Shown: piece by piece, positions 10,074 to 50,785 of the stretch
Numbering within the stretch: the first letter of the stretch is position 1
Layout of the letters: every line of letters begins with the position of its first letter
DNA from: Escherichia phage Pondi
Direction: 5' to 3' (one strand)
Length of the DNA stretch: 60,610 nt
Sequence record: OP136151.1
Notes under the pieces: model-generated
Database searches by the model: none
The model's input: only the letters and a program-made list of their open reading frames with translations
What the model was told of the DNA's origin: nothing
Made by a program: the position numbers and the translations under genes

Positions 10074-11705
10074 TTAAGCGACATCCGGTTCATAGCTGTC
10101 GTTGTAGCCACCCTCGATAACCGGGAAGGCGAACGTAAGGGCCAGCGCGTCACCAATATCAGGCGAGCGACCGATACGCTTCTTGATTTCGTCCTTCTTC
10201 TCAAGGCGCAGGCGGTCACCATCAAAGCGGTAGGTAGGCGCACAGAGGTCACGGCCCCAGTCATGACCCTGCGGAAGTGAGGCAGCGTTACGCATCCAGT
10301 CACGAATGCGGACCCACATTTCAGCGCGCTTGTTGGCGTACTTGTGTTCCTCGGTAGCCTTCTCTGCAAAGTGTACCATCGTCACATTGTGAGCGGCACC
10401 ACGGGCAGACAGGAGATCATGAACGCCAGTACCGTAACCGCCAGTGCCATCAATGAACGTATGGTTGACGCCGTACAGTTCCCGCAGTACGTGGAGGCGG
10501 TTGGCAATCTCGCCATTGGTCGCCTTGCTCAACTTCTCACAATGCAGGACCACACGACCACGACGCACCACGAAGGCCGTCGAGTCATCGCCCATTGCAG
10601 CAACGTCTACGCCCATAACGGTGGCACCGACAGGATCGAGCTTACCAGATTTCGCCCAGTACAACGCAGAGGCCACCATGTCACCAGTAATAAGCAGGTT
10701 GTCGCCTGTAGCCTGGAAAGCTAGCTCAGCGGTAGCGGGGTAATCTCGGTCAAAGCGTCGGGAGTCGCCATCGAGCAACTTGATTTGCTTACGACGCCAG
10801 AACATCTGGTCACGGTCCAGTCCGTAGAGACGGGCGTACTTTGCTTCCTCGTCGCTGTACACGAAGGAATCAGGAGCCTCGCTGCGGTACTCGTCTTGCC
10901 AGAACCACGGCACGAAGACACGGATAAAGCCGGAGCCGTCCGCATCCGTCAGGCTGTCATTGACCGCAGGTGATGCAAGCATCCACTGGGTATAGAAATA
11001 TCCTGATGCACCGTTGGCGGTTGACTCTAAGTAAACCTCGGTGCCGTCAGCGTTAGGGATGGCCTGCATGATACCTGATGCAATCTCGGCACCGTCATCA
11101 AAGAATCCGACCTCTGACCCGTGGAAGAAGGAAGCAGTAAGGCCACGTCCGGCAGACGTAGAGCCAGCGGTTGCTACTGCGTACTTGCTATCTAACTCAG
11201 GAAAGCTGAGCATCATGCCGTTATCGTGGCCCTTAACAGGCTGCAAGTCTTCCGGGCAATGCTGATGGTAACGCTTGGTCATGTCGAACAGGGCGGAGGA
11301 TGATTTAGCCTGATGCGCCATAATTAGCGAGTGATAAGCCTCGGTGTGAATCGTCTTCCAGTATGCGCGAGCCTGGACCGTGGTACTCATCCCCTGCTGG
11401 CGACCTTTAACGACCACAATACGCACCTTACCCGTGTGGTGCATCTGCCATGCTGCGATTGCATTCATGTATTGCTGAGCTTTGTTAAGCCGGATGGGGG
11501 CGATCGTGTTGTCCTTGCCACGGATAACAAGGCATCGCTCAGCGAAGAATTGGAACTCGGTACGACACTTGAGGAAAAAGGCGTCCATCTCTGAGTCATC
11601 TTCAAAGGTAAAGTTAACGCTATTTGCCTTCTTCTCTAAGTAATCGACCAGCATCCAGACATCGTCATCGGTGTTGGTGAACTCCCATACGTCACGTTTA
11701 GACAT
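10074..11705 (-). CDS. Terminase large subunit, 543 aa
   Basis: Deviant Walker A-like KGRQQGMST near N-terminus, size and domain order typical of large terminases; TAATG overlap with upstream small-terminase candidate. Confidence 0.8.
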   Translation of the reverse strand: MSKRDVWEFTNTDDDVWMLVDYLEKKANSVNFTFEDDSEMDAFFLKCRTEFQFFAERCLVIRGKDNTIAPIRLNKAQQYMNAIAAWQMHHTGKVRIVVVKGRQQGMSTTVQARAYWKTIHTEAYHSLIMAHQAKSSSALFDMTKRYHQHCPEDLQPVKGHDNGMMLSFPELDSKYAVATAGSTSAGRGLTASFFHGSEVGFFDDGAEIASGIMQAIPNADGTEVYLESTANGASGYFYTQWMLASPAVNDSLTDADGSGFIRVFVPWFWQDEYRSEAPDSFVYSDEEAKYARLYGLDRDQMFWRRKQIKLLDGDSRRFDRDYPATAELAFQATGDNLLITGDMVASALYWAKSGKLDPVGATVMGVDVAAMGDDSTAFVVRRGRVVLHCEKLSKATNGEIANRLHVLRELYGVNHTFIDGTGGYGTGVHDLLSARGAAHNVTMVHFAEKATEEHKYANKRAEMWVRIRDWMRNAASLPQGHDWGRDLCAPTYRFDGDRLRLEKKDEIKKRIGRSPDIGDALALTFAFPVIEGGYNDSYEPDVA

Positions 11706-12451
11706 TATTCGCCCCCGTTGCTCTTAAAGTTTGCTTGCAGTCGACGTAAGCGGTCGCGCTGTGTTTCTGCTTCGCCTTGTCCTTGCTCCACGTTATCCCA
11801 GCCTTTGAGGCGTGAGAGTAGCGCACTTGCAGCAATGACCGACTTCGGATCGTATTTACATTGGCCCTCAACTGGTAGACCCGTCAGGTTGTCGAACTCC
11901 TGTTTCAGTTGTAAGCCACGGTCGATGACCTGCCATAGCACGGCTTCGAGATATGCTTTGTTCCTTACAGGTGCGAATAAGCTACGGCCCTTCATGCTCG
12001 CCAGGTAGTCGGCAACGTGAGATGACCGCAATAACTCGGCGGCCTTCTTGTCAGCCAGTTGTTTATTGAATATCTCAAAGCTGGCGGCGGCGGCTGCGGT
12101 GGCGTTCATTCCCCTGAGTACGTTGTTGGCAAAGGATAGCTCGGCGTTATTGAGGTATAGCGCCTTGTTCCTGGCGTCAACAGGCACGGCCTCGGATGAC
12201 TGGAGCGGACTGACCGCCAGATCTTCAGGTTCCAGTGTACTGGTTGCCAGGTGCTGGACTGCGACGGCATGGTTAACACCGCGCTTTAGTCCCCGGTTGA
12301 GTGGTTCCGGCTTGATGATATTCCCGGTTCCGATATGTACGGCGGTCTTAAACTGATAATCATCGAGGCCATACTTTGCAGCCAGTAACGCGTCCGTCAC
12401 TTCGCCATCGAGATAATCAAGAATAAAACTCGCGCGGGTTTCTGGTGTCAT
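11705..12451 (-). CDS. Terminase small subunit (putative), 248 aa
   Basis: First gene of late block, immediately upstream of and translationally coupled to the large terminase; call is positional. Confidence 0.45.
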   Translation of the reverse strand: MTPETRASFILDYLDGEVTDALLAAKYGLDDYQFKTAVHIGTGNIIKPEPLNRGLKRGVNHAVAVQHLATSTLEPEDLAVSPLQSSEAVPVDARNKALYLNNAELSFANNVLRGMNATAAAAASFEIFNKQLADKKAAELLRSSHVADYLASMKGRSLFAPVRNKAYLEAVLWQVIDRGLQLKQEFDNLTGLPVEGQCKYDPKSVIAASALLSRLKGWDNVEQGQGEAETQRDRLRRLQANFKSNGGE

Positions 12452-12550
12452 GGCTTAGTCCCTGCGTAGTTTGTGATCACCTGCATAGCTTAACACTGTG
12501 ATGCAAGTCACACAAATATCGCGCGTCTGCTTAAAAAGGCCAGGTGTCTT

Positions 12551-12836
12551 ACCCTGCTCAACTTTTAGTTTTCGCGTAGCGCTGCGTAGATTGGTTACTT
12601 TTTAACCTGCGAAGGTAGGAATCTAAAAGCTAACGACGAGAACTAAAAGCGCGCGAAGATTTCTCGAAGCCTTCTTGAAGAGGCCACCCGCTAGATATTG
12701 CTTGCAGTCACCCTCAATAATTGAGAAACTAATTCTGTGCTTTTTGACCTTTGAATTATTAACAAGCTTTTAGTTAGTTATTATTTACTTCGCGGGTGAA
12801 AAGTAGTTAGTTAAGTATATAAATCTAACTAAAAGC
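12551..12836. repeat. Iteron-like 9-10 bp motif AACTAAAAGC / GCTTTTAGTT in five copies within the long noncoding region
   Basis: Copies read at about 12551, 12621, 12641, 12766 and 12827 in both orientations in a 451-bp gene-free region. Confidence 0.4.
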
Positions 12837-12878
12837 TTGTAAGTTTAAAGAAGCTCAGAAAGCACAGAATTAGTTTCT
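12724..12878. repeat. Composite imperfect palindrome: 20-bp perfect outer inverted repeat (12724..12743 / 12859..12878) and 15-bp perfect inner inverted repeat (12762..12776 / 12826..12840)
   Basis: Arms verified base by base; ends 10 nt upstream of the RBS of the first early gene; candidate origin, operator or terminus-associated structure. Confidence 0.6.
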
Positions 12879-12902
12879 AAATAACCAAAAGGAGTCTACA
12901 AG

Positions 12903-13583
12903 ATGTCAGACGTAAAAGTGCAGGGTGTAATGTTCCTCGATGAAGCTCGCCGTAGAGGCTTCACAACCTACGACGGGAAAGCGTGCCGTAATTGTGGTGG
13001 AGTGCTTCGCTACGTGTCCAATCGGGGATGCGTGGCGTGCAACCTTGAGCATAAGAAAAGCTATGCTGCGTCGGCTGCATTAAAACGTGAGGCTGCTCGC
13101 CAGGTGCGCAACGATGCAGCGGAAGCCGGGGAGAAGCAATATACCGGATCTCCGTGTAAGAAGTGCAACGGTACAGAGCGCTACACTGTCAATGGTGGTT
13201 GTGTGGCTTGCTCTAAGAAACAGGCAACAACCTTAGATAAAGCAAAGCGCGCTAAATATCACTCAACTGATAGCCTGGTTATGTGGGTAAACGAGCCGCC
13301 AGCGCCCAGCGTTGCACATCTATATAAGCTAATCCCTTTCCTGGCCTCCAACCCGGACGGCGGTAACTGGTCGCTACGTTACACCGATGCTCATCACCTT
13401 GCACCTTCAGGCATGAGATTGTTCACGGGGCGTGATGTCCTGGAGCGTCCGCAAATCATGCAGACCATCCGGGCAGACTACACGCTGAAGGGATACCGGG
13501 GCGGACACTTTGACATCGTTCCGCATATCGGCGAGGCCATGACGCAGGCCATCCGCTTAACTAACCTTGCACGGAGTAAATAA
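12903..13583 (+). CDS. Early protein with duplicated zinc-ribbon motifs, 226 aa
   Basis: Two CxxC-x12-CxxC units (CRNCGG...CVAC and CKKCNG...CVAC); AAGGAG RBS; first gene after the noncoding region. Confidence 0.55.
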   Translation: MSDVKVQGVMFLDEARRRGFTTYDGKACRNCGGVLRYVSNRGCVACNLEHKKSYAASAALKREAARQVRNDAAEAGEKQYTGSPCKKCNGTERYTVNGGCVACSKKQATTLDKAKRAKYHSTDSLVMWVNEPPAPSVAHLYKLIPFLASNPDGGNWSLRYTDAHHLAPSGMRLFTGRDVLERPQIMQTIRADYTLKGYRGGHFDIVPHIGEAMTQAIRLTNLARSK

Positions 13584-14374: not shown

Positions 14375-14653
14375 ATGAAAACATTAAAAGAGTTTTACCA
14401 GGCATACGCAGCATGGCTTGACGCTGGCGCACCGGAAGACCAGCCGTTTAGTCGAGCATATGGGTTGTGCGACAACCTTTTTACTCGGGGTTGCTACGAT
14501 ATACTGCGAGAGTTAAAGGGCCATTTCAAAAGTGAAGGTTATGATCCTGCTTACCCGTTTGGTGGGTCGGAAGTGTTCGAAACTGAAATGGATAACGAAG
14601 AGATGCACCTTAACCCTGAGCGCATCAAGTGGGTGAAAGACCATGCAAAATAA
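14375..14653 (+). CDS. Hypothetical early protein, 92 aa, paralogue A
   Basis: Shares FY.AYAAWLDAGAP...QPF...YPF...NPERIKWVKDHA with the next gene; GAGGA RBS. Confidence 0.55.
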   Translation: MKTLKEFYQAYAAWLDAGAPEDQPFSRAYGLCDNLFTRGCYDILRELKGHFKSEGYDPAYPFGGSEVFETEMDNEEMHLNPERIKWVKDHAK

Positions 14654-14939
14654 AACATTACAGCAATTCTATAACGCTTATGCCGCATGGCTTGACGCTG
14701 GCGCGCCACACAAGCAACCATTCTACCGCGATGCGGGATTGTGTCATAACCTGGGCAAGTTCGGCGGCGACCGTGACGCTTATATCGAGATGGGTCGCCA
14801 GTTTGAAGCGGCTGGACTTGATTACAAGTATCCCTTTAATGACGGTGAGGGGGATTATCTCGTTAAGTCATACGAGAGCCATCACCATATCAACCCTGAG
14901 CGAATCAAGTGGGTGAAAGACCATGCAAACAATCAGTAA
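14643..14939 (+). CDS. Hypothetical early protein, 98 aa, paralogue B
   Basis: Tandem paralogue of 14375..14653; 3' ends of the two genes share a near-identical 38-nt stretch. Confidence 0.55.
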   Translation: MQNKTLQQFYNAYAAWLDAGAPHKQPFYRDAGLCHNLGKFGGDRDAYIEMGRQFEAAGLDYKYPFNDGEGDYLVKSYESHHHINPERIKWVKDHANNQ

Positions 14940-19182: not shown

Positions 19183-19377
19183 ATGGCGATCAATTTAAAA
19201 ACCCGTGTGCAATACCTGGCCGAGCGGGAGGCCATAAGTTTATCGGAGGTTGAACGGCGAGCAGGCTGGAAACGTGGCACGCTGTTCATGGTACTAAAAG
19301 CAAACAATCCACGCCTTCAAACGCTGGTATCACTGGCGGCGGCGCTCAACGTAACGGTAGGGGAATTAATATCATGA
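19183..19377 (+). CDS. Helix-turn-helix (XRE/Cro-like) DNA-binding protein, 64 aa
   Basis: LSEVERRAGWKRGTLFMVLKANNPRLQTLVSLAAALNVTVGEL matches the HTH_XRE pattern. Confidence 0.6.
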   Translation: MAINLKTRVQYLAEREAISLSEVERRAGWKRGTLFMVLKANNPRLQTLVSLAAALNVTVGELIS

Positions 19378-20722: not shown

Positions 20723-21370
20723 ATGAAACAATCAATTGTAGACGCTATCTTACGCAACGCTGAGCACAAATCCGGTATCGTCGAACGTGACAAGACCATT
20801 TGCGCCCGTCGATCTGCGGTGGCTGTGCGTATCCGTGATTACTTCCTGAAGCAATCCGGTCTGAGCATTGAGGAAATTTTAGCATTAAAGCGTGACGCCG
20901 ATCATATCAATGACAAGCTGAAAGCGTTCGGCTGTGTCAACGCTCAGGTAACAAGCGATTACTTTTATGTAAACGTATGCGGTCACAGCCATAACATTCG
21001 CATTGACGGCCTGCGCTACGGTGGCACGTATGATGATGCGCGTTCATTGTTTGCTGATAGCGGCGCTGACATCGAGCATTGCATCGTACCCGCCTGGCCT
21101 GTTGGTGAAGGTCTGGTGTACCCGTATGAATCCGCACGCGATGAGCTTATGGCGATTGATGCCGACGCTAAGGCGCTGCGCAAGGACTACGACAACCTTC
21201 ACGCCACGCTGAAAGCCCAGCTTAAGCCGTTCCGCACGGTTGCCGCACTGCTGAAAGCCTGGCCGGAAGCGGCTGAATTAATCCCGGCGACCGAGAAACC
21301 GCAGTCAACCGAGATTGCGCTTGATGTGTCCACGCTTAACGCGCTGTGTGGGGTACCATCTGGTAAATGA
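20723..21370 (+). CDS. Hypothetical protein, 215 aa
   Basis: AAGGA RBS; no recognisable motif. Confidence 0.5.
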   Translation: MKQSIVDAILRNAEHKSGIVERDKTICARRSAVAVRIRDYFLKQSGLSIEEILALKRDADHINDKLKAFGCVNAQVTSDYFYVNVCGHSHNIRIDGLRYGGTYDDARSLFADSGADIEHCIVPAWPVGEGLVYPYESARDELMAIDADAKALRKDYDNLHATLKAQLKPFRTVAALLKAWPEAAELIPATEKPQSTEIALDVSTLNALCGVPSGK

Positions 21371-23059: not shown

Positions 23060-23292
23060 AAACAGTTGAATACTTTGGTTACGCGGTGGACGTACCGAAT
23101 AGAGCCACACACCTGGCGGCTGACGGTGACGGAACGGTTTACGCGTTTGTCGGTAAACCGTTCATTTTAGCTTACGTATGGTGGCCTCGAAACGGTTATG
23201 GTGCTGTCGAAACCTGTTACGTTACCGACTGCCCGAAACTCGATACACAAGCTATCGACTGGCGCGACTCACTGAAGGAGATTAAATCGTGA
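23056..23292 (+). CDS. Hypothetical protein, 78 aa (GTG start)
   Basis: GTGAAAAC context; coupled to neighbours. Confidence 0.45.
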   Translation: MKTVEYFGYAVDVPNRATHLAADGDGTVYAFVGKPFILAYVWWPRNGYGAVETCYVTDCPKLDTQAIDWRDSLKEIKS

Positions 23293-23918
23293 GCAATATT
23301 CACGTAATGGCAGACGTTGAGAACCTCAGCGTCGAGCCAAACGGACCTGTACTGACCATCGGCCTGGTAGCGTTCGACATTACCAGCGGTGAGATTGTGG
23401 CGGAGTTTTACGAGCGCATGGATCGCAATCTGGCGCAGAAATACGGCACGCCCAGCCTTTCTACCCTGAAGTGGTGGGAAGGTCAGGACGAGGCGGCCAG
23501 GGCTGAAGCGTACAACGGTACCAGCGACCCGCGCAACGTGGCGCGTAGCCTGCGTGAGTGGTTCGTCAAATACAACCTGGGTAACTCCGGCATTTGGGGC
23601 AACGGATCTGTAATGGACATCGCCCAGCTTGAATGGTGGCTACGTCAAACCAACCCTGTGATCGGTAAGTACGGGCAGGAATACCCGTGGAAATACAGGA
23701 ATATCTACGACATGCGCACAATCATGATGCTTGCAGGTATGCAGATGCCCCGCACGCGCCCGGCGCACATCCAGTATCATAACGCGCTGCATGATGCCCG
23801 GTACCAGGTTGAGTGGGTGTGCAAGGCTTACGCCAAACTCAATAACAAACCTGCCGTAATGCAGCAACAGCCGGACACGTGGCCGCCGGATGTAGATTCA
23901 TTCATTACTGCTGATTAA
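23289..23918 (+). CDS. DEDDh-family 3'-5' exonuclease (DnaQ-like), 209 aa
   Basis: Exo I MADVENL (D-x-E), Exo II GNGSVMDIAQL, Exo III YHNALHDARY (Y-x3-H-D). Confidence 0.7.
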   Translation: MSNIHVMADVENLSVEPNGPVLTIGLVAFDITSGEIVAEFYERMDRNLAQKYGTPSLSTLKWWEGQDEAARAEAYNGTSDPRNVARSLREWFVKYNLGNSGIWGNGSVMDIAQLEWWLRQTNPVIGKYGQEYPWKYRNIYDMRTIMMLAGMQMPRTRPAHIQYHNALHDARYQVEWVCKAYAKLNNKPAVMQQQPDTWPPDVDSFITAD

Positions 23919-25150: not shown

Positions 25151-25846
25151 ATGAGTAAGAAACGTAATACCGCCGAAGTTGTCGAACTCAACACCACACC
25201 ATCCCCCGTTATCCGCGCAGATAAATCGCCCATTGAACCACGCACCGCAAACCAGGAATCGTATCTCGAAGCCATCCGAACCAAATCCCTTATTTTCGCC
25301 AGCGGTGAAGCCGGATGCGGGAAGACATTTATCGCGGCATGTAAAGCGGCTGAGTATTTATCTGACAAAGTTGTCGAACGGATCGTCGTCACCCGACCTG
25401 TACTCAACGCGGATGAAGACATGGGCTTCTTGCCTGGCGGACTTGCTGAAAAGTTCGACCCCTACTTCAGACCAGTCAAAGACACCTTAATCAAACGCCT
25501 GGGTGAGACGCACTTCAAATACTGCATGGACCACGGCAAGATTGAGATTGCACCGTTCGCCTACATGCGGGGCCGCAGCTTTGACAACGCGTTCATCATC
25601 CTCGACGAAGCGCAGAACGTCACACCTAAGCAAATGAAACTCTTCCTGACGCGTATCGGTGATAACTGCATCGTGGTCGTCAACGGTGACATCACTCAGT
25701 GCGACTTACCGAAGGGGACTCAAGACGGACTCAGCGATGCGTTAGCCCGTTTCCCCGACTCCGATGACGTGGCCGGGATTCTCTTCCACAAAAATGATTG
25801 CGTTAGATCACATATTTGTAGACTTGCATTAGAAGCCTACGAATAA
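25151..25846 (+). CDS. phoH: PhoH-like ATPase, 231 aa
   Basis: Walker A GEAGCGKTFIA and the PhoH-family FIILDEAQN...GD.TQCDLP motif. Confidence 0.8.
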   Translation: MSKKRNTAEVVELNTTPSPVIRADKSPIEPRTANQESYLEAIRTKSLIFASGEAGCGKTFIAACKAAEYLSDKVVERIVVTRPVLNADEDMGFLPGGLAEKFDPYFRPVKDTLIKRLGETHFKYCMDHGKIEIAPFAYMRGRSFDNAFIILDEAQNVTPKQMKLFLTRIGDNCIVVVNGDITQCDLPKGTQDGLSDALARFPDSDDVAGILFHKNDCVRSHICRLALEAYE

Positions 25847-26878: not shown

Positions 26879-27091
26879 ATGGCGCAGCACAAGATTAACG
26901 TGTTCGGTCGTTACCTGCTATGCTGTATAGCATCGGCTGACGCACCTGTAACGTTCGATGAACTGGCCTCCTATACCGGCTACGACAAAGAGCATGTGCG
27001 CAAGGCGGTAAAGAAACTTGAAACGGCTGGAGTCGTTACTATTCACAAACCGCATCGTAAGGAGGCTCAAATTGTCGCAACATTTATTTGA
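26879..27091 (+). CDS. Small winged-helix-like DNA-binding protein, about 70 aa
   Basis: DELASYTGYDKEHVRKAVKKLETAGVV resembles a wHTH; start uncertain (weak RBS). Confidence 0.35.
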   Translation: MAQHKINVFGRYLLCCIASADAPVTFDELASYTGYDKEHVRKAVKKLETAGVVTIHKPHRKEAQIVATFI

Positions 27092-27560
27092 GCATCATTT
27101 CAGATACGACCCCGTTACCGGGAAACTGTTCTGGAAAAGGCCAACGGCGAATTGCATGAAGCCGGGTGATGAGGTAGGCGCTGTAAACTTTGACGGTTAT
27201 CGCCAGTGTTATTTCAAGTGTAAGCAGTATAAAGTTCATCGCATAATATGGGAGATGTGTCACGGTACGGCACCCGATGGATTCATCGACCATATCAACG
27301 GTATACGTGATGACAATCGTATTGAAAATTTAAGAATCGCAACATCCGCTGACAACGGGAGGAATAGAGAACGTTTATATCGAAACAAGCTGGGTGTTAA
27401 AGGGTTGTGTGTAGGTAACGGATCGTACTGCGCTTATGTGTGCGACAATCGAAAATACTTCCCTTTAACTGAAGAAGGTAAACGCCTCGCCGTGGAATGG
27501 TTACAGGCTCAACGACTGGCACATGGAGAATTTGCCAACCACGGAGAACACAAAGCATGA
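27072..27560 (+). CDS. HNH homing-type endonuclease, about 162 aa (TTG start)
   Basis: RYDPVTGKLFWKR and HRIIWEMCHG...IDHINGIRDDNRIENLR match the HNH motif; AGGAGG 6 nt upstream of TTG. Confidence 0.7.
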   Translation: MSQHLFEHHFRYDPVTGKLFWKRPTANCMKPGDEVGAVNFDGYRQCYFKCKQYKVHRIIWEMCHGTAPDGFIDHINGIRDDNRIENLRIATSADNGRNRERLYRNKLGVKGLCVGNGSYCAYVCDNRKYFPLTEEGKRLAVEWLQAQRLAHGEFANHGEHKA

Positions 27561-28542: not shown

Positions 28543-29037
28543 CTACTTGGTTCCTTTGAAAGTGCCAATTCTTTTTTCGCCCAGCTTACCCGGTTCAAAC
28601 ACAAACAGCACTTGTCCCAGGTTGTTTCCGGCTACACGCTTTCCGGTAACGGGGTGAATGAAGGCCACACGCCCGATACTAAACCTGGCCTCTGAGCAAG
28701 CCTCCAGCGCCTTGTGAAACCAGCGAGCACCAGTCTGTGCGTTGACGATTGACACCACGCCACGGTCCGATTCGCTGCACTGTATCCACTGATCCACCCA
28801 CGGGTCCACGAAGGAGAACGGCGGGTTGTTCCATACCCATTTACCTTCCGGGCAGAAGTCCGCCCAGTTAAAACCTAACCCCTGCTTAAAATACAGGGGG
28901 AACTTTCTGTTGTGCTCATCTGCCGCCGCGTCGATTGCGAAATCGAACTCCAGCGACAGGCGATCAATCAACCACTGGGGCGTACCCCAGCAATCGCGTA
29001 ACTCCTTTGGTGTCTTGCTTGCGTAGAAAGGTTTCAT
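28543..29037 (-). CDS. DNA N6-adenine methyltransferase, phage Dam family (T1-type), 164 aa
   Basis: CWGTPQWL...FDFAIDAAA...WVWNNPPFS matches the compact phage Dam-family signature with NPPF catalytic motif; ATGA-coupled to primase-helicase. Confidence 0.7.
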   Translation of the reverse strand: MKPFYASKTPKELRDCWGTPQWLIDRLSLEFDFAIDAAADEHNRKFPLYFKQGLGFNWADFCPEGKWVWNNPPFSFVDPWVDQWIQCSESDRGVVSIVNAQTGARWFHKALEACSEARFSIGRVAFIHPVTGKRVAGNNLGQVLFVFEPGKLGEKRIGTFKGTK

Positions 29038-31445
29038 TCGTACAGTATCCCGTTGTCTGGTTCTTCAATCGGTCGAATAAACGCACCACGCAGTACGCGA
29101 GTATCACCCTCGTATCCGACTTCAATTTCGTCCATAGCATCAATCATACGGGCGAATGCGCCGAGACTACGGGTACCGCCGCCGTCATTATCAGCCGCCC
29201 AGTCACGGTAGCGTTTGAAGACGTCAGACAATGGTGCCCAGGTACCTTCACGAACAATCAGCGCTGACTGCACGAACACGTCAAGTGGAGACGTTGCCGC
29301 TTTGAATACGCGGATGCGTTCTTCCATACATTCGTGATTCTTCAGGCGCTTAACTTCACGCAGCTTTTTAAGACCTGCAATAGCCCAGTTGATGATACCC
29401 GGCATTTCCGCACGCAGCTTTTCAGTAAGGTCTGAATCTTCACGACCTTTAAATGAGCGCGGCGTGTGGAAGAACAGACCACGCTCGACCATTGCTGACG
29501 ATGACTCTGACAGGTTAGGGATGGCGTTACATGTCATGTTCAGACGACAGCGCATCGTAACTTCAATCGTTGACTGATATTTACGGTTGATGCGCACGTC
29601 GTCCTGGCCGACGATGTTTTTGATACGGTTGACCACGGCTGTACGGTTAGCCGGAGACGGATCGGATACGTCGTTCAGGAACGCGCCGAGTTTATCGTAC
29701 ATACCTTGCAGGTGCGCTTCGTTGGTCAGGTTGTCCAGCGTAGGCGACGCGCAGTTGTGGCTACCTAACATGGCGTGAAGGATACGCATCATTGTCGACT
29801 TACCGGAACGGGCCACGCCTGACATAATAAGCATCTTCTGCTGGGAAATATCATCCGTAAGCATGTAACCGAACCACATCTGCAACTGTTCAATGAGCGG
29901 TTCATATTTAGACTGGCCCCATACGCGATACAGGAACGCTTCCCACTGCGGACATGTCGCGGTAGGGTCGTAAGAGTACGGCAGGTGTGCACGAATACGG
30001 ATGTCCGGGCTATGAGCGATCATAGTGTTGCCATTGTTGATGTCCAGGATACCGTTGTCGAATGCTATCAAACCGGAAGTGTCGCGGTCAGGATCGTTCT
30101 TAAACTCAGGCCATTTAGCCGGAGCCTGTACGATGAGATGGTTTTTAATCATGCTCACTGTACCTTTAACGTCGGAGTCGCTCGGTGCTACCAGTTCCAT
30201 CTCACGGGCAACCATACCGTTAATCCAGCCGGGGGCCACGCTTTTGAATACTTTACCGTCGAACATGTAGAACTGATCTTCGCAGATGATGATCTCACCT
30301 TGTGCCGAGTTCTCAAGCAAGAATTTCTGAGCGTTCGTTGTATGGTTTTTGCTGTAGTCGATAGTGTCAACCAGCACCTTACCACTTTTACGCGCTTCAA
30401 CCACTGCGGCAGAAATGTCGGCAGCTTTCGGTGCTACTGCGGTTACGGTTTCCGGCACATAGATAGCCTGCTCAACTGGAGTCAGTGACATACCCGGCAG
30501 TATTGCGGCCTGCTCAGTGAGACGTGCAGCAAACGAGCGTGCACCCACACCATTCTGGCTGTACTTGTAAACGTTCTGGACGGTCGGCCACATCTCATCG
30601 CCCCACGGCGGTTCGTTGTTAGCGTCCCAGTAGTCAATCATTAACTCGTAGGTTTTCTGCGGTGACAGTTGGTAGTCACGTCCGGCTGCGGCAGTCTTAA
30701 ACAGCACATGGTTACCACCCTGGCCGCTAATGGATTGCTCGGCGCGCTCCTTCAGGTAGGTGATAAACTGTTTGCAGTTGTGATCGTTGTCGTCGAAGTC
30801 ATCCATCCCGCCCACGTACTGAGCGCTGCGCTGGCGTACCCACTCGCCCATCTTCATCATCTTCTCGTCGGTCAACGTGAAGCGTGAGATAACGTCGCGC
30901 AGTTTGTAGCGTGGTATGTCAGCGTGGAGTTCCGCCAGTTCGTAGAGAACGCGGTTGTCCAGTGACTTCTGGTGCATGAATCCCGGTACACGCATAACGC
31001 GGTCAGGGTTTACCATTGACTCGTCGCTACCGAAGTGCAGAGCGATCTGCTTCTGTGCGATCATCCACTCCATAGCAGAGCAGTCGCCGTCGATAAACCA
31101 GTAAGCGTGGAAGTGCGTGTCGTCGCGCTTGACGATAGCGTGTGGCGGAATAGGCCACTGGTCCGGGAACGGAGCACCGTCACTGTCCATGAAGACAGCG
31201 CGGAAGATGTCGATGTCATTCTTACCACGACCGCCTGTAGTCGAACCATTGACAGACGTGAACACGCCACAGCCGCGAGCCTGAAGGTCAGCCAGCTTTG
31301 TCGGATTCATATACGCGTATTCCCAGCCAGCCAGGTCGCGTCGGTCTTTGTCATAGTCACAGAACCACTGCCATACAAGCGGCGGGTTTTGCATTCCAGT
31401 TAGCGCGGCATAAAACAACTGCGCCTGTTCAGGCTTATAGGTCAT
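29034..31445 (-). CDS. Bifunctional DNA primase / SF3-type helicase (prim-pol N-terminus, D5/P4-like C-terminus), 803 aa
   Basis: N-terminal Asp- and His-rich primase-like region; C-terminal Walker A GVARSGKST and P-loop NTPase architecture. Confidence 0.65.
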   Translation of the reverse strand: MTYKPEQAQLFYAALTGMQNPPLVWQWFCDYDKDRRDLAGWEYAYMNPTKLADLQARGCGVFTSVNGSTTGGRGKNDIDIFRAVFMDSDGAPFPDQWPIPPHAIVKRDDTHFHAYWFIDGDCSAMEWMIAQKQIALHFGSDESMVNPDRVMRVPGFMHQKSLDNRVLYELAELHADIPRYKLRDVISRFTLTDEKMMKMGEWVRQRSAQYVGGMDDFDDNDHNCKQFITYLKERAEQSISGQGGNHVLFKTAAAGRDYQLSPQKTYELMIDYWDANNEPPWGDEMWPTVQNVYKYSQNGVGARSFAARLTEQAAILPGMSLTPVEQAIYVPETVTAVAPKAADISAAVVEARKSGKVLVDTIDYSKNHTTNAQKFLLENSAQGEIIICEDQFYMFDGKVFKSVAPGWINGMVAREMELVAPSDSDVKGTVSMIKNHLIVQAPAKWPEFKNDPDRDTSGLIAFDNGILDINNGNTMIAHSPDIRIRAHLPYSYDPTATCPQWEAFLYRVWGQSKYEPLIEQLQMWFGYMLTDDISQQKMLIMSGVARSGKSTMMRILHAMLGSHNCASPTLDNLTNEAHLQGMYDKLGAFLNDVSDPSPANRTAVVNRIKNIVGQDDVRINRKYQSTIEVTMRCRLNMTCNAIPNLSESSSAMVERGLFFHTPRSFKGREDSDLTEKLRAEMPGIINWAIAGLKKLREVKRLKNHECMEERIRVFKAATSPLDVFVQSALIVREGTWAPLSDVFKRYRDWAADNDGGGTRSLGAFARMIDAMDEIEVGYEGDTRVLRGAFIRPIEEPDNGILYE

Positions 31446-44165: not shown

Positions 44166-47100
44166 TTAAAACAACATCCAATATTTGTCACTCAATTCTT
44201 TCGCCAGTTCGTTCTTCTTGACCTGCAAGGCATCCAGTTCTGCACGCTTCGCTTCAGGTGACATACCGTCGTTCGCGTAAATCTCTTTCGTCTGGCGGTT
44301 GTACTTCTGCATCCGGGCAACGCCTTTCTCAATTGACTTACGGGCAGACAACACGCTGGCCTTCTCGGTCTTAAACTCCCGATACGCCTGCATGTTCTTC
44401 TGGTCTTTGTACGCCTTCAGGGTACCGTACGTTTGACCAGCCTTCTCGCTCATCTGGTACAGACGGTCGGTGTATTTGTCGCCGGACACACCGCCACGTA
44501 CGAAAGTTTTTACCACCGGGTAATCAAAATCCTTTTTAGCCGGGGCAACTTTTTCGGTACCCGTTCCTTTGCGATAGGCCACGTCCGTTACACCGACGAT
44601 GTACTGACCGACTGTCCCGGTGTAACCCTCAATCATATGCTGGAGACGCAGCGGACTACGCATCCATTCCGGGGCAGCTTCAGGTAACGCCTTGCTCATA
44701 TCCTTAATCCACTCAGGCGTCGTGGTGCTGTGCTGCTGGTTAGCTTCCAGACGTTGCAGTGACTGCGGTACGATTGGACGCTGAGTAAAGCTATTCATGT
44801 TGGTCTGGTCTTCGTAGATCGGCTTGAAGAACTGAGGCCAGTCTGCCGCAAACGTGTTAGACAACATGAAGCCCAGGCGTGCACCAAACATACGGTCGTC
44901 ACGGTACAGCGCTTCGAATGCACGCTCAGGAATAGTGCCGAACAGTGCGCCCAGTTCGAACGGTTTCGGGATACGGTAGCGAGTGTCGCCAGCGAAGATG
45001 ATCCAGAAGGAATCACGCTCATGTTCTGGCAGCGCCCAGTAACGTTCGTCGTCCGCGTTCATTGCCATAAGGGCCATCGTTGCACCAACAAGTAGAGCAC
45101 CTTTCAGCATGAACGCTTTCGGGTTCTCTTTACCACCACGTACCATACGGTCCAGACCCTGCACACGGGCATTCAGGAACGGTATCATCGCCATCGCTGC
45201 TTTGGTTACACGGCTGCTACCACGGCGGCTGAAGTTCAGCACATCGTTAGACTGGTATGCAGCTTCCACCGGATCGCCAGTGTGCTTCAGGACGTCTTCG
45301 TACACACCCATGCGAGTGGCCTGTTCGGATGCCGTCAGCAACTTACTGTACATTTCCCACAGCTTCTTAGGTGAGTTAACGATGGTGCCGCCTTTCTCCA
45401 GCTTGCGCAGGTTTTTGGCAACCGACTCAGGACGGGAGTTATCGTAACCGCCCATCATGCCGCCAGCGACGTGGTAGTCGACAGCCATCGAGTCGTTGCG
45501 GATGGAACGCATCGCACCCTGGAACGCTTTGAAGAACGGGCGGAACGTCAGGACGTCTTTAGTGATAGCAGACATTCCGTTGCGGCCAGCGGCTTTAGTC
45601 ATCTGCACATAGTTACCCATTACGTCACGCACGAAGTTGGTCATAACGAAGTTAGGCGTTGACGTCACGGCTGCTGTGAATACACGTTTAGGCCAGCCGA
45701 GAATGTTGATGAGGGTATCGACGGCTTCCGGGCCAACACCTGCGATTGCTTCCAGCAACTGCGGGTCGGTCACTTCGTAATACTTCGCCTTGCCACCTTC
45801 ACGCACGGAGATAATGTTAGCGCCCTGCGGTGCTACTGCGGTGAACAGGTTGGAGTATTGCGCCATCTGCTCAGCGGTCATACCTTCAACCTTCAGGCCC
45901 AGGTTGGTCAGCGCACGTTTCATCTGCTCGTTGCTGATACCGACAGGCTTGAAGTTGTGCGGCACTTCTTCCAGCGCTGCGTTGATGGTAATGTCGCGCA
46001 CCTTCTGCATGGCCGCGTTCTTGTAGCCGGACGAGATCATGTGGTTAACGTTACGCGCCATGTTCTCCAGGATGTCCATTTTACCAGCGCCACCCTTCAG
46101 ACGGCGGATGCCGGAAGACTGATCAGCGAGGCCACGTTTTCCAGACGGTGCTGTTACACGGTCCACTTCCTCATCCACACGGTAGAACGGAACGTAGTCG
46201 TCGGATTCGAACAGTTTACGCTGCTCAGGATCTACGATGCCAGTTTGCTCACCGAAGTCGAGGATGGCTTTGTTAAACTCACGCCAGTCTTTGTGCGCCT
46301 GGTTGAATACCTTACGCATTTCCGGGCGACGGTTAACATAGTCGATGATGTCTTTAATCTGCTTCTCGGTGTACAGGTTTTCGCGGCCTTCTTCCATCAA
46401 GCGTTTGGCACGCACAGCACCCGCCCAGTATTCCCACACTGGCAGCATATTACCTTTCATCTCCAGCACTGGATTGAAGATTTCAGTGAAGCCTTTGGTG
46501 TTCTTGTTCAGGCTGATGCCACCGTCTTTGTATACCGGAGCGCCGTGGTTCATTGCGACGGCCACGGTGCTGTTCACGTTCTTCGCCAGCATTGCCATCT
46601 TGTACGCCGACTCTTTACCCTGACGCAGTTCACCGTTGTTACCAGCCTTCTCATATTTGGCGATGGTGTACAGGTCATCCACGCCTTTCTGATACAAGCC
46701 TTCCATCGTCAGACCGTTGTCTTTCATGATGTCTTTGATGCGCTGGAACAGAGAGCGGTCATCGCGGTACATGGTGTCACGCATACCCTGCTTGATGTCT
46801 TCGTCCACTTCCGCAGACTCGATGTCGTTTTTCTTTTTCAGGCTGGCGGCAAAGTTACGCGGCGCGCTGTACTGCATCGGCGGCAGAGATTTACGCACGT
46901 CGTCACGGTTGACAGTGTTGTCACGCAGGTACTGAGCATTGGCCTGAATAAGCTGGCGTACAGACTCCATGCTGGCGCGACCGTCAATCAGCTTGGCTTT
47001 AATCATCAACTGACGCAGAGCTTCCAGCACGCGGGTAATGACGTTGGACTTCTCCAGGATAGCTGGGTTTTCCGCAGCCAGCGCTAGGACTTCTTCAGCC

Positions 47101-50100
47101 ATCATACGCTGCGCGTCAGGTGACGACATGTCGTACAGTTCGCTGTAGCTCTCGCGCACTTCTTTGAAATACTTCGCCAGCGCCGGGGACTTATCGGCGG
47201 CCAGGATTTTATCCATCTCAGCGTCGTATTCCGGTTTAGACAGGCGAGCACGCAGACCGTAGTGTACGACAATCTCATGACGCAACAGAGCTTCCACTTC
47301 TTCCTTGCTGGTCAGGTTTTCGGAGATCAGTTTAGCGCTCACGTTGCCAGCGTCATAGAAGCCGAGCAGGACGCTACCTTCCGGCAGGTCGATACCCATA
47401 TCTTCCTGACGCTGCATGACGGTCATGTCTACAGCCTGCGCGCCTTTGAACTTCTTCAGGAAGTCGGCGGCAACCACAGCCACATCTTCCGGTGACATAC
47501 CTTGCTTATCAGACGCAGGTTTAACGCTGGCAGCACCGGACTGTTTGTCAATCTTACGCTTAGCGTAGTCCTTACCGAAAATCTCACGACGACCTTTTGA
47601 GTCTTCAGTAGCCAGGTACGTGTCGTGGATAGACTTAACGGTGAACGTCTCGCCGTCTTCCTCGAAAGTCTTACCTACCAGCGTGTGATAGTCGACATTA
47701 GGGGTAACGTCCGGCTTGTCAGTCTTCTTCGGTACGCGAGCTTCTTTGTAGGCCACGTAATGTTTGGCTGGCGCTGACATGTCACGGGAGTCAACCTTAT
47801 CACCACGGGCATACGCGCGGTCGATGGTTTCCTTCAGTGTGATACCGTCAGGTTGCATCTTCTCCAGGGCGCGGACGTAGTTGCGACGTACCAGTGGCTT
47901 CATACCACGTGTGAAATCTTCCAGTGACTTCTCGAAAGATTCAGTGCGCGCGGCAGACTTCTCACGCAGACGGTCAGCCGTCGCCTGACTTTCTTTACTC
48001 AGACCTTTCGGTGACGGTTCAGCGATACTGGACATGCGTTCTTCCAGTTCCTTACGCATGGTCGCGCGAGTCTTACCTTTCAGTGGCGCGTACAGATGAC
48101 GGTCGGATTCCGGTACCTGCGTTTCCATAGCGGCCAGGGTCTCACGCACTTTGTTCAGCGGACGCTTGGTATCGTTGACTTCATGCAGCACACCTTGCAG
48201 CGTATTAGCGTTGACACGGCTTTCCGAAGACATCCCTAAACGATCACCTTTGCCCGGCGCGTCCATCACGTTGCTGTCACCACCGCGACGAATCATGACA
48301 TCGCCGTTGTCCAGCACGAAGCGACGACCTTGCACACCAGTGATCTTGCGGACTTCACCGTGGGAGTCTTTCGCATACTTCCCGTCCAGGTCGGTACCTT
48401 CCACTGGCCCAAAACCAACACGACCTTCAACGTCGGTAACGCGAGTAGACTCACCTTCGATTGCGGCGTTATCCTTTTCCTTCTCTGCGATCATCTCACC
48501 CAGGTCACGCTGGACTTCGGCAGACTGCGCCAGTACATCGTCGGTCGCCTGCTGTGCATCGGTAACCATCTCACCCAGGTTGCGCTCGTCTTCGAACTCT
48601 ACAGGGGCTAGGTCATAACGCTCACGGGCATCTTTGGTTTCCTGAGACACACGCTTCATACCTTCCGGTACCACAGACGGCACGTTGATTTCACGGGCGT
48701 CGACAATGTGACCGTTGCCGTTCTCATCAACCAGACGTACAGCGCGGCCCTGGAATTTATCGACGGAATACTCCTTGCCGTTCCAGTTCACTTTGTTGCC
48801 GACGTCAACGCCACGCTCGTTGGCTTCCTTCAGGATCTTGTTGGTAACCTGAATAGCTGGCTGCTTCTTGCCAGGTAACGCCGGACGCACAGATTCACGC
48901 TCGATGTATTTCGCTACAGCCTCGTCACCTTTCGCCTTTAGTTCTGCCTGACGTGCTTCTTCGGCGGCCAGCGCTTCTGTATCGACTTCTGGCGCGGCTT
49001 TCTTTTTGGTACGGGCAAACAGTGCTGACTTCGGTTTAACCTCGGCAGCGGCTGGCTCAGCGGCGGGAACGGTCGGTTCCAGTGCAGCGGCTACGTCAAT
49101 CTGCGGCAGCGGCGGTGGAGTCACTTTATCTTTCGGCGGCAGTGCTGGCGGTACCACAGCTTCGGTAACCTGCGGTAATGCTGGCGCTTCCAGTTTCTGC
49201 TGTACTGCTGCCAGTACCGGAGACTCTTCAGCGACACCGCGTGGATTGTAACCAGTGGCCTCTTTAACCTGCGCAACTGGACCGGGCATAGCGATGGTGG
49301 AAGTTTGCCCCGGAGACGGCAGACCTTTAGTTTCACCCGGCAGCGGACCGACGTCACCCTGCGCTACCTGCTGCTGTACCATCTGAGCTACAGACTGCGG
49401 TGCGTTAGTGGCGCTCGCCTTGTTCGCATAGTAGATAGAGTCCGGGGAGTCGAATAGTTCGCTGACCATCTGATCCATAGCGTCGACTTCACCGACATCA
49501 CGGGATGCGGCCATCGCTTCAGCCGGAGACATACCCTGAGCGCGCGCTTCCATGTAGGCAGACTTGCGAGCTTCAGTGATTGCAGGAGACGCCTGTTCAA
49601 CCATCTGGTCCAGCACGTCACCGCCGCCCATCTCAGCACGCACAGCGTCGTATTCGTTCGGGTCCACACCTTCAACAGCCTGACCGGACTCAGCCGCAGC
49701 GTCACCGATAGCGTTGTTAACAGAGCGGTTATCCTTCCAGTCTTTGACCATGCCGGGAGCTTGCACCGCGCCATGCAGAGTAGCACCTACGCCAGCACCA
49801 GTTACACCGGAGAACGCCACGTCATTCAGGAACTGGCCTACCGTCATGTCTTCGTCGAGCACGCCGATGTCGTAACCATTCTGGATAGCCTGGGTAGCGG
49901 ATTCCTGAATACCTTCAGCTATTGCAGATTTGCCGAGATCAGTAAGGCTGTGGGCACCTTTCTTCATGATGAGGCCCAGCGGTACCGCTTCAGTAATCGG
50001 TTCCAGTGCGGCGAACATGGTTGCGCGGTTGTCGGCTTCTGCCGGAGACAGACCTTTGTCGATTGAGTCCTGATAGTAGGAACCGTACGCCTGACCAGTC

Positions 50101-50744: not shown

Positions 50745-50785
50745 TAGAAATGCTCCCCCTTGTTGATAGGGGAAGCATAGCATAT

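Follow-up and report, generated by a model that had tools for sequence, protein, structure and literature searches.

The spacer between the late and early genes of Escherichia phage Pondi: an interrupted palindrome with phage-specific repeats as a possible early promoter and replication origin

Introduction

Which functions are carried by the spacer at positions 12452-12902 of Escherichia phage Pondi (sequence record OP136151.1), a region that encodes no convincing protein and holds an interrupted palindrome and a cluster of short repeats? An earlier note on this DNA had proposed a replication origin, a packaging (pac) site or a switch controlling early transcription. These possibilities were examined in the window, i.e. 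the whole circular Pondi assembly of 60.6 kb, whose positions are used as coordinates throughout, and in related phages. The reading that we favour, although tentatively and with somewhat less than even confidence, is that the spacer is an early promoter/operator that doubles as a replication origin, with a packaging cut site and a terminase/late-promoter block immediately to its left.

Pondi belongs to the Xuquatrovirus-like podophages, a poorly understood group that consists of Pondi, PTXU04 (genus Xuquatrovirus; about 94% identical to Pondi across the structural genes), HelliStehle/Bas95 (Bas95 below) and about 50 uncultured relatives. Of the 17 essential genes of PTXU04, 12 lack a known function. 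Neither an origin nor a promoter or packaging site had previously been mapped in these phages, and no description of the Pondi spacer region was found in the publications on PTXU04, Pondi and Bas95.

Results

A gene-free spacer at the point of divergence

The spacer lies between the start of a small-terminase-like gene (terS, 11705-12451, minus strand) and the first early gene (Pondi_00016, 12903-13583, plus strand). The late genes, which include terS and the large terminase gene (10074-11705), run leftward from the region and the early genes run rightward from 12903; the spacer thus splits two divergent blocks, as had been proposed, and it is the single point in the Pondi genome where transcription diverges. 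terS is a 248-aa open reading frame (ORF) with a weak match to the PHROG terminase-small-subunit family, and its PTXU04 ortholog (gp01) was assigned as small terminase by HHpred and scored essential in published work. Within 12452-12902 the coding potential was limited to two unconvincing ORFs of 32 and 35 aa, which bears out the claim that the region is gene-free. To call it the only long noncoding stretch is also reasonable, given that the gaps at 28.1-28.5 kb and 43.0-43.7 kb hold small ORFs and no repeat clusters, and no other origin-like cluster of repeats or inverted repeats was found elsewhere in the Pondi genome. GC skew, which had been suggested as a check, tracks the direction of transcription and is uninformative on the origin either way.

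An interrupted palindrome around an AT-rich centre

The inverted repeat in the spacer had been described as a perfect 20-bp outer block and a perfect 15-bp inner block, with the potential to form a cruciform of about 155 bp. The outer block is indeed perfect over 20 bp (12724-12743 / 12859-12878), the inner block is perfect over 16 bp rather than 15 (12762-12777 / 12825-12840), and the two belong to one 58-nt inverted repeat (left arm 12720-12777, right arm 12825-12882) that is 81% complementary and is interrupted by a centre of 47 nt. No second large inverted repeat was found in the whole window, and the longest perfect arm of 20 nt compares with 11-14 nt in 10 shuffled genomes. Folded as single-stranded DNA, the palindrome gave -38.4 kcal/mol (z = -8.2). 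The cruciform, in contrast, is unlikely in duplex DNA. Cruciform extrusion from the duplex needs a short spacer between the arms, and here the centre is too long, with 47 nt in Pondi and 29-129 nt in relatives, so that the arms can pair easily only once the centre is already single-stranded. Internal hairpins were not detected in either arm, as the arms folded alone gave -2.3 and -3.3 kcal/mol (z about +0.4). A protelomerase target (telRL) was also considered and rejected: the centre is non-palindromic, and no protelomerase gene was present among the proteins scanned (a subset of the ORFs).

The centre (12778-12824) has a GC content of 26% and contains a -10-like TATTAT (12779-12784), the conserved TTCGCGGG (12789-12796) and a purine tract. 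Short iteron-like repeats are placed around it. With at most one mismatch, AACTAAAAGC has 8 sites in the 60.6 kb, as compared with 2.9 expected, and 5 of these are found in the spacer within a stretch of 276 bp; the five copies that had been noticed before (three exact and two with one mismatch) are therefore real. The first two are AACTAAAAGT at 12561-12570 (minus strand) and ATCTAAAAGC at 12621-12630 (plus strand), and the third, AACTAAAAGC, lies at 12641-12650 (plus strand). The remaining two are situated in the arms, at 12766-12775 (minus strand) in the left arm and at 12827-12836 (plus strand) in the right arm, where they face each other across the centre. Taken together the five copies form two inverted pairs, with three copies further to the left and one copy only on the right side of the centre. 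In addition, TAGTTAGTTA occurs as direct repeats at 12771 and 12804, 33 bp apart.

The cassette in related phages and the evolution of its arms

Relatives were gathered with the small-terminase protein as query, which gave 51 protein clusters, and the corresponding loci were then retrieved; the palindrome was measured in 15 relatives and the core of the centre was compared in 17. An interrupted palindrome was found directly upstream of the zinc-ribbon early gene in all 15 relatives with readable sequence, including one in which terS is just 47% identical. The palindromes span 111-189 bp, with arms of 15-69 nt and centres of 29-129 nt, and a decayed palindrome is present in L018. In L016 and L020 there are extra genes between terS and the cassette, and the palindrome together with the adjacent GGCCAC motif remains beside the early gene, at a distance of 1.0-1.2 kb from terS.

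The centres have a GC content of 23-36% versus 44-57% in the flanks (17 relatives), and they share a conserved core despite the unrelated arms. This core consists of a -10-like TATWNT, a T(T)CGCG or TCACR sequence and a purine-rich tract, and it is bracketed by a phage-specific motif in two direct copies with a spacing of about 31-33 bp. This spacing equals three helical turns and suggests that a protein contacts the duplex from one face. The iteron-like repeats are also phage-specific, polar and restricted to the spacer region, where they reach leftward beyond the probable genome end described below. In L013 eight forward copies of TGATTAG(G/A)T are followed by three reverse copies, and in PTXU04 three forward copies of GATTAAG are followed by two reverse copies.

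The sequences of the arms are unrelated between phages. Between Bas95 and L023 the spacer is 89-95% identical, except for two blocks of about 35 bp that correspond to the outer arms and are 60% identical. Since the third codon positions of terS are 75% identical in the same pair of phages, the spacer outside the arms is strongly constrained and the arms evolve at the neutral rate or faster. Nevertheless 92% of the arm positions are paired in both phages, and 10 of 33 pairs were changed on both sides (with the partner shifted by 1-3 columns there were 0-2 such pairs, and 0 of 500 shuffles reached the observed values). On another branch, L017, L018 and L024 have near-identical cores and differing arms. 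As judged from these alignments, this means that pairing, and not sequence, is the property maintained in the arms, and the arms are a clear natural example of covariation in phage DNA that encodes no protein. The complementarity could reflect selection for the stem or homogenisation between the arms. For a finer comparison of the arms among close relatives of Pondi no readable palindrome was available: both contigs end inside it, and IMG/VR contained only PTXU04 and two distant relatives.

Contigs of three relatives (L015, L021 and L022) end inside the palindrome; L015 is broken at the contig start, L021 at 1-72 and L022 at 1-70. Two of the breaking contigs (NCBI GCA_027494755.1 and Logan SRR17237133) encode the same protein and end at most 2 nt apart, about 70 bp upstream of the early gene. 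Such breaks could be an assembly artefact caused by the inverted repeat or could reflect heterogeneity at this place.

The cassette could alternatively be an invertible promoter segment, in which recombination between the arms would flip the centre and thereby redirect its promoter from the early to the late genes. Identical inverted repeats of arbitrary sequence are what recombination-driven inversion both needs and produces, promoter-like sites are located within the segment, and the three contigs that break inside the palindrome are independent of each other. However, the core points the same way with respect to the early gene in 17 of 17 relatives, the proteins scanned included no recombinase, and assemblies also break routinely at inverted repeats as an artefact. 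Inversion is thus, in our view, extremely improbable.

Promoter-like sites and the transcriptional alternatives

Promoters were predicted with a simple position-weight scan for a sigma-70-like consensus, for which chance matches are likely in AT-rich DNA. A strong rightward promoter with its -35 at or in the outer end of the right arm was predicted in nine relatives (PTXU04, Bas95, L023, L007, L009, L011, L013, L014 and L020), with scores of 10.5-13.7 as compared with a genome-wide 99th percentile of 11.7 (80-nt windows). In relatives the reverse repeat copies overlie the -35, the spacer or the -10 of the predicted early promoter, and in 16 of 17 a -10-like hexamer adjoins the conserved TCGCG core. 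In Pondi the hexamer aligned with the -10 of the PTXU04 early promoter (TATAAT) is CAGAAT, at 12865-12870 within the right arm, and the right arm of Pondi, like that of the most distant relative (L027), ends 13-20 nt before the start codon. The best internal rightward site in Pondi is TTATTA-17-TATTAT (score 10.0), with a start near 12790 at the conserved core. A leftward sigma-70-like promoter (TTACAA-17-TATACT, minus strand) is predicted in the centre and right arm at 12814-12843, with a start near 12807, and a comparable leftward site starting near the centre of the palindrome was seen in 11 of 15 relatives (score at least 8.8). The predictions for most relatives, in which a consensus promoter is overlapped by repeats, would agree with the proposed switch for early transcription; in Pondi itself the homologous site is weak.

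The same predictions would also be made by a purely transcriptional early promoter/operator that has no origin function. The repeats would then be operators controlling divergent promoters and would be bound by a phage repressor or autoregulator, e.g. the zinc-ribbon protein or the Cro/C1-type helix-turn-helix protein at 19183, and the symmetry of the arms would be a by-product of a mirrored operator/promoter layout or of homogenisation. This agrees with promoter-like sites that recur at fixed places relative to the palindrome and are overlapped by repeats, with a cassette that always travels with the first early gene, as any promoter would, and with a conserved core that resembles a -10 followed by a GC-rich discriminator. 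It also agrees with the absence of the repeat motif from other promoter regions, which is expected of a local autoregulator. Operators are sequence-constrained, yet the arms (25-69 bp) evolve at or above the synonymous rate and preserve nothing but their complementarity; it is implausible that a protein half-site would be so long and arbitrary in sequence, and the Pondi early promoter is weak by consensus. A transcriptional role can in other words explain the centre and not the arms, and we regard it as unlikely to be the sole function of the cassette, although it has to be taken seriously.

A co-varying stem with a conserved 'loop' is, furthermore, a classic signature of structured RNA. The palindrome could in that case encode a long hairpin with a conserved apical region that serves as the 5' leader of the early mRNA, as an RNase III site or as a short leftward run-off RNA started by a promoter immediately to the right of the right arm. 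The palindrome has a predicted RNA fold of -67.5 kcal/mol, and PTXU04 and L023 have a promoter-like site that points leftward from 8-16 nt beyond the right arm, both of which are compatible with this idea. Mismatches in the arms gave no strand signal, however, as wobble-compatible changes were about as frequent for the plus strand (11) as for the minus strand (8), in addition to 33 transversions. No promoter that lies outside either arm and would transcribe both was consistently placed across relatives, and the only Rfam matches were plant microRNA-precursor models, i.e. generic long hairpins, at 20-37 bits and thus far below their thresholds of 56-230. These three results make the RNA model weak. 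Moreover, most relatives have their best early promoter within the right arm or downstream of it, and an early mRNA started there would lack the left arm, and the central direct repeats at three helical turns suggest that a protein binds the duplex DNA. We therefore consider a structured RNA very improbable.

Hairpin promoters of the type used by an N4-like virion or phage RNA polymerase were rejected: the 2205-aa Pondi protein (44166-50783) has a C-terminal LPD38 domain as its only domain and matches no PDB sequence. Its PTXU04 ortholog (gp25) is essential.

The first early gene and the replication proteins

Pondi_00016, the gene next to the cassette, encodes two zinc-ribbon repeats (two C-x2-C-x12-C-x2-C; relatives carry two to four) and a conserved C-terminal domain of 115 aa, and in the relatives the zinc-ribbon gene is always linked to the palindrome. 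In a published knock-down screen of PTXU04 the ortholog (gp92) was the sole early-block gene scored as essential, and it carried a weak HHpred 'endonuclease' guess in that publication. No Pfam or PDB sequence match was found for Pondi_00016, and its family, with 13 clusters among 1.8 billion proteins, does not extend beyond this group of phages. A model of the full-length protein was of low quality (pLDDT 57) and a Foldseek search with it was empty; the C-terminal domain, which was confidently modelled, matches no known fold. A nuclease role was rejected, given the lack of a Pfam or PDB match and of an invariant catalytic His/Asp set. From the ribbons we infer DNA binding, and we consider the protein a candidate binder of the region.

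The second protein of interest is the D5-like primase-helicase (29034-31445), a fusion of a primase with an SF3-type helicase, the N-terminus of which matches the RepB_primase family (E = 8.5e-7). The other replication proteins of Pondi are an SF2 helicase, a DNA polymerase, a DUF2800 exonuclease and a gp2.5-like single-strand-binding protein. Pondi, PTXU04 and Bas95 have primase domains that are 96-100% identical. From about residue 300 onwards, Pondi is 28-82% identical to PTXU04 and Bas95, and those two are 96-100% identical to each other, indicating a mosaic protein in which the helicase/C-terminal half has probably been swapped by recombination. PTXU04 and Bas95 also share the repeat core ATTAAGT, and the Pondi repeat differs from it. 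By analogy with the Rep proteins of staphylococcal pathogenicity islands (SaPIs), this fits a helicase half that reads the repeats.

A probable genome end and a conserved block next to terS

The boundary of the linear PTXU04 record maps to 12687|12688 in Pondi, directly after a GAGGCCAC motif (12680-12687, plus strand) and 32 bp to the left of the palindrome; in PTXU04 the boundary is 36 bp from the palindrome. The record starts with GTGGCCTC and ends with GCGCCAACCC, and it has no direct terminal repeat. Its authors linearised contigs where most reads ended abruptly, and BAL-31 digestion in the PTXU04 paper indicated a genome that is not circularly permuted. The position 12687|12688 is thus a probable physical genome end and terminase cut site, and, given that the published boundary as aligned to Pondi falls right after GAGGCCAC, the terminus probably lies in the spacer but outside the palindrome. 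A purine-rich GGCCAC motif is found 30-87 bp to the left of the left arm in every relative, usually together with a second GGCCA(C/G) motif 57-152 bp further left. In Pondi the first GGCCAG/GGCCAC motif of this pair, AAAAAGGCCAG (12538-12543, plus strand), which falls within the conserved block described next, is 144 bp from the one at 12680-12687. The two might delimit a short terminal repeat.

Between this probable end and terS, the non-coding sequence at 12468-12600 is about 90-95% identical in Pondi, PTXU04, Bas95, L013/L014 and L023, i.e. it is better conserved than the third codon positions of terS (75%), and it co-occurs with a conserved terS. A sigma-70-like promoter for terS and the late genes is predicted within it at 12487-12515 (minus strand), with -35 TTGTGT at 12515-12510, -10 TAAGCT at 12492-12487 and a start about 30 nt upstream of terS, and the prediction, which is a consensus match, recurs at the same position in 10 relatives. 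The block also contains the palindrome TGTGA-N6-TCACA (12497-12512), which matches the CRP core consensus and occurs nowhere else in the window. This sequence is kept in close relatives; in distant relatives it is present 2-3 times, with a distance of exactly 96 bp between two of the copies. Its overlap with the predicted terS -35 corresponds to the position of a repressor rather than an activator, and each copy in the distant relatives is followed by a GGCCAC motif about 41-61 bp later. The block at 12468-12600 would accordingly serve as late promoter and/or in terminase recognition, as suggested by its conservation and position.

PTXU04, Bas95 and L013 have almost the same N-terminal (DNA-binding) part of TerS, whereas their palindromes and repeats differ. 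TerS therefore fits the conserved block better than the variable repeats, and it was rejected as the binder of the repeats, as neither these nor the arms co-vary with its N-terminus. The same comparison bears on the possibility that the palindrome itself is a packaging or genome-end structure, either as a termination signal or as a hairpin that processes or protects the end, with the repeats as small-terminase sites flanking the cut. Such a role would agree with the PTXU04 boundary 36 bp from the palindrome at a conserved GAGGCCAC, with a genome that is not circularly permuted, with repeats on both sides of the boundary and with the proximity of terS, and a hairpin intermediate near the concatemer junction was reportedly proposed in the older literature on T7 packaging. 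It is difficult to reconcile with the near-constant TerS N-terminus and with L016 and L020, in which the palindrome stays with the early gene and 1.0-1.2 kb away from terS. Packaging acts on duplex DNA and gives no reason for complementary arms; furthermore, the Pondi assembly is circular and the position of the end comes from the sister phage PTXU04. We hold a packaging role of the palindrome to be improbable. As regards the earlier proposal of a pac site, a probable end does lie in the region, but 32 bp outside the palindrome, and the conserved block is the better fit to packaging.

The layout of 12452-12690, as distinct from the palindrome, resembles that of the lambda cos region, where cosN and cosB are found beside the small terminase gene. 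The cut site would be about 240 bp upstream of terS with the conserved block in between, and PTXU04 has defined, non-permuted ends, the likeness to lambda being one of layout only. If an end of the PTXU04 type holds for Pondi, the early genes are at the genome end opposite terS. In lambda and T7 the corresponding end is packaged last and ejected first, and on this analogy the palindrome would be among the first DNA entering the cell.

In some distant relatives (L007, L009, L011, L012, L017 and L018) gene calling places a small gene of 34-72 aa between the palindrome and terS; it is on the same strand as terS and lies about 100-260 bp upstream of it, and Pondi has no ORF there. L010 carries a perfect 19-bp inverted repeat (CCGTGCATACGTCACACTT / AAGTGTGACGTATGCACGG, 69-nt spacer) 95-201 bp upstream of terS, in addition to the palindrome at its early gene.

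Discussion

A possible combined early promoter and replication origin

Several lines of evidence make a combined early promoter/operator and replication origin the best reading of the cassette: the iterons are opposed, the arms keep pairing only, the repeats overlap predicted promoters, the cassette is linked to an essential gene and lies at the point of divergence, and the genome contains no rival cluster. The spacer would then be built of three modules. Beside terS there would be the conserved block with the late/terS promoter and probable terminase recognition elements, ending at GAGGCCAC. The second module, 32 bp further on, would be the family-conserved cassette (12720-12882), i.e. the centre and its core framed by complementary arms, and the third the first early gene with its essential zinc-ribbon protein, which is always attached to the cassette. 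A phage-specific protein, for which the adjacent zinc-ribbon protein and the C-terminal part of the D5-like primase-helicase are the candidates, may bind the opposed repeats on the two sides of the AT-rich centre. The repeat copies that overlap promoter elements would shut off early transcription. When the centre is unwound, the arms would pair on each of the single strands and hold the bubble open for loading of helicase and primase. The sequences show the anatomy and its conservation, the compensatory changes in the arms, the linkage to the early gene and the place of the PTXU04 boundary; we infer both the origin and the promoter activity, as well as the identity of the binding protein and the action of the arms as single-stranded DNA. 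As to the origin that had been proposed earlier, the opposed iterons, the AT-rich centre and the complementary arms do fit such a role by analogy with known origins, and it is the cruciform mechanism that is unsupported.

In its mode of action the Pondi cassette would be most similar to SaPI origins and, with respect to unwound inverted repeats, to oriV of the IncQ plasmid RSF1010. SaPI origins have iterons in opposite directions on both sides of an AT-rich centre that are bound by self-loading Rep/Pri-Rep helicases (PMC9371898). Pondi likewise has short, element-specific repeats opposed across an AT-rich centre and a fused primase and SF3-type (D5-like) helicase, with a specificity that varies between close relatives. 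The SaPI origin, however, is immediately downstream of rep, whereas the Pondi primase-helicase gene is about 16 kb from the cassette; in SaPIs the iterons have 5-6 nt, and long complementary arms are not described. RSF1010 oriV contains iterons, an AT-rich segment and a pair of inverted repeats, one on each strand, whose function depends on unwinding (PMC8567376). The Pondi arms are also two inverted repeats on complementary strands (12720-12777 / 12825-12882) and the phage primase N-terminus matches RepB_primase. The ssiA and ssiB sites of RSF1010, on the other hand, are conserved over 40 nt and have a hairpin each, and the Pondi arms have neither property, being unrelated between phages with 96-100% identical primase domains. 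The cassette should not be counted as a member of the SaPI or the RSF1010 class, as it fails defining features of both.

Two other types of origin offer partial parallels. In iteron plasmids (F with RepE, pSC101 with RepA, R6K with pi) direct repeats make up the origin and inverted copies autoregulate the promoter of the adjacent initiator. L013, with eight forward copies of its repeat followed by three reverse copies over the predicted -35 and -10, is organised in a comparable manner, but the product of the gene adjacent to the cassette in Pondi is unlike Rep initiators and the long arms have no counterpart. The oriL and oriS of herpes simplex virus (HSV) are large AT-centred palindromes between divergent genes, thought to form hairpins after unwinding and recognised by an origin-binding helicase. 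HSV is a eukaryotic virus with unrelated proteins, and its palindromes are continuous and lack a long non-palindromic centre.

Several observations weigh against a combined promoter and origin. Homogenisation by template switching could keep the arms complementary without any selection for a stem. The zinc-ribbon protein cannot be assigned to any family of initiators, nucleases or DNA-binding proteins, the gene of the primase-helicase is 16 kb from the cassette, whereas the origins of SaPIs and plasmids adjoin their rep gene, and the correlation between repeats and helicase half rests on three genomes, which are too few to weigh heavily. Among the promoter predictions, the -10 next to the core usually lacks a good -35, and the downstream early promoter of Pondi is weak (score 7.6; the homologous -10, CAGAAT, is inside the arm). 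Origins can also lie inside genes. Finally, the arms are not conserved in sequence and have no internal hairpins of the RSF1010 ssi type, which implies that they are not primase recognition signals of that type.

A more specific proposal would be that the arms represent a sequence-free, pairing-only element around a duplex, protein-binding centre, for which the single-stranded state is required, and hence that a tailed phage uses an origin bubble clamped by stems. This bolder version we find distinctly improbable. If it were true, the fast concerted turnover of the arms would point to selection for new specificities, for example through incompatibility of the origin/early region between co-infecting relatives or through escape from a host factor that recognises the arms.

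Irrespective of the mechanism, a spacer of 450 bp appears to combine a likely genome end, a late promoter block and a family-wide early/origin cassette tied to an essential early gene. If the origin were confirmed, the layout of SaPIs and plasmids, with iterons around an AT-rich centre, would be extended to a lytic coliphage with a stem added, and the origin could be used for engineering of these phages.

Other features of the Pondi genome

The first and last 77 bases of the window are identical (1-77 and 60534-60610), which indicates an untrimmed circular assembly with a true length of 60,533 bp; the Pondi paper prints another size ('6,1061 bp'). Other genes in the early region encode Nmad5 (nucleotide-modification-associated; 20723-21370), an Rv2179c-like 3'-5' exoribonuclease (23289-23918), a PhoH-like ATPase (25151-25846) and an HNH endonuclease (27018-27560). 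The adjacent small early genes at 14375-14653 and 14643-14939 are paralogous and represent a tandem duplication, both products containing F/Y-x-AYAAWLDAGAP and ending with NPERIKWVKDHA.

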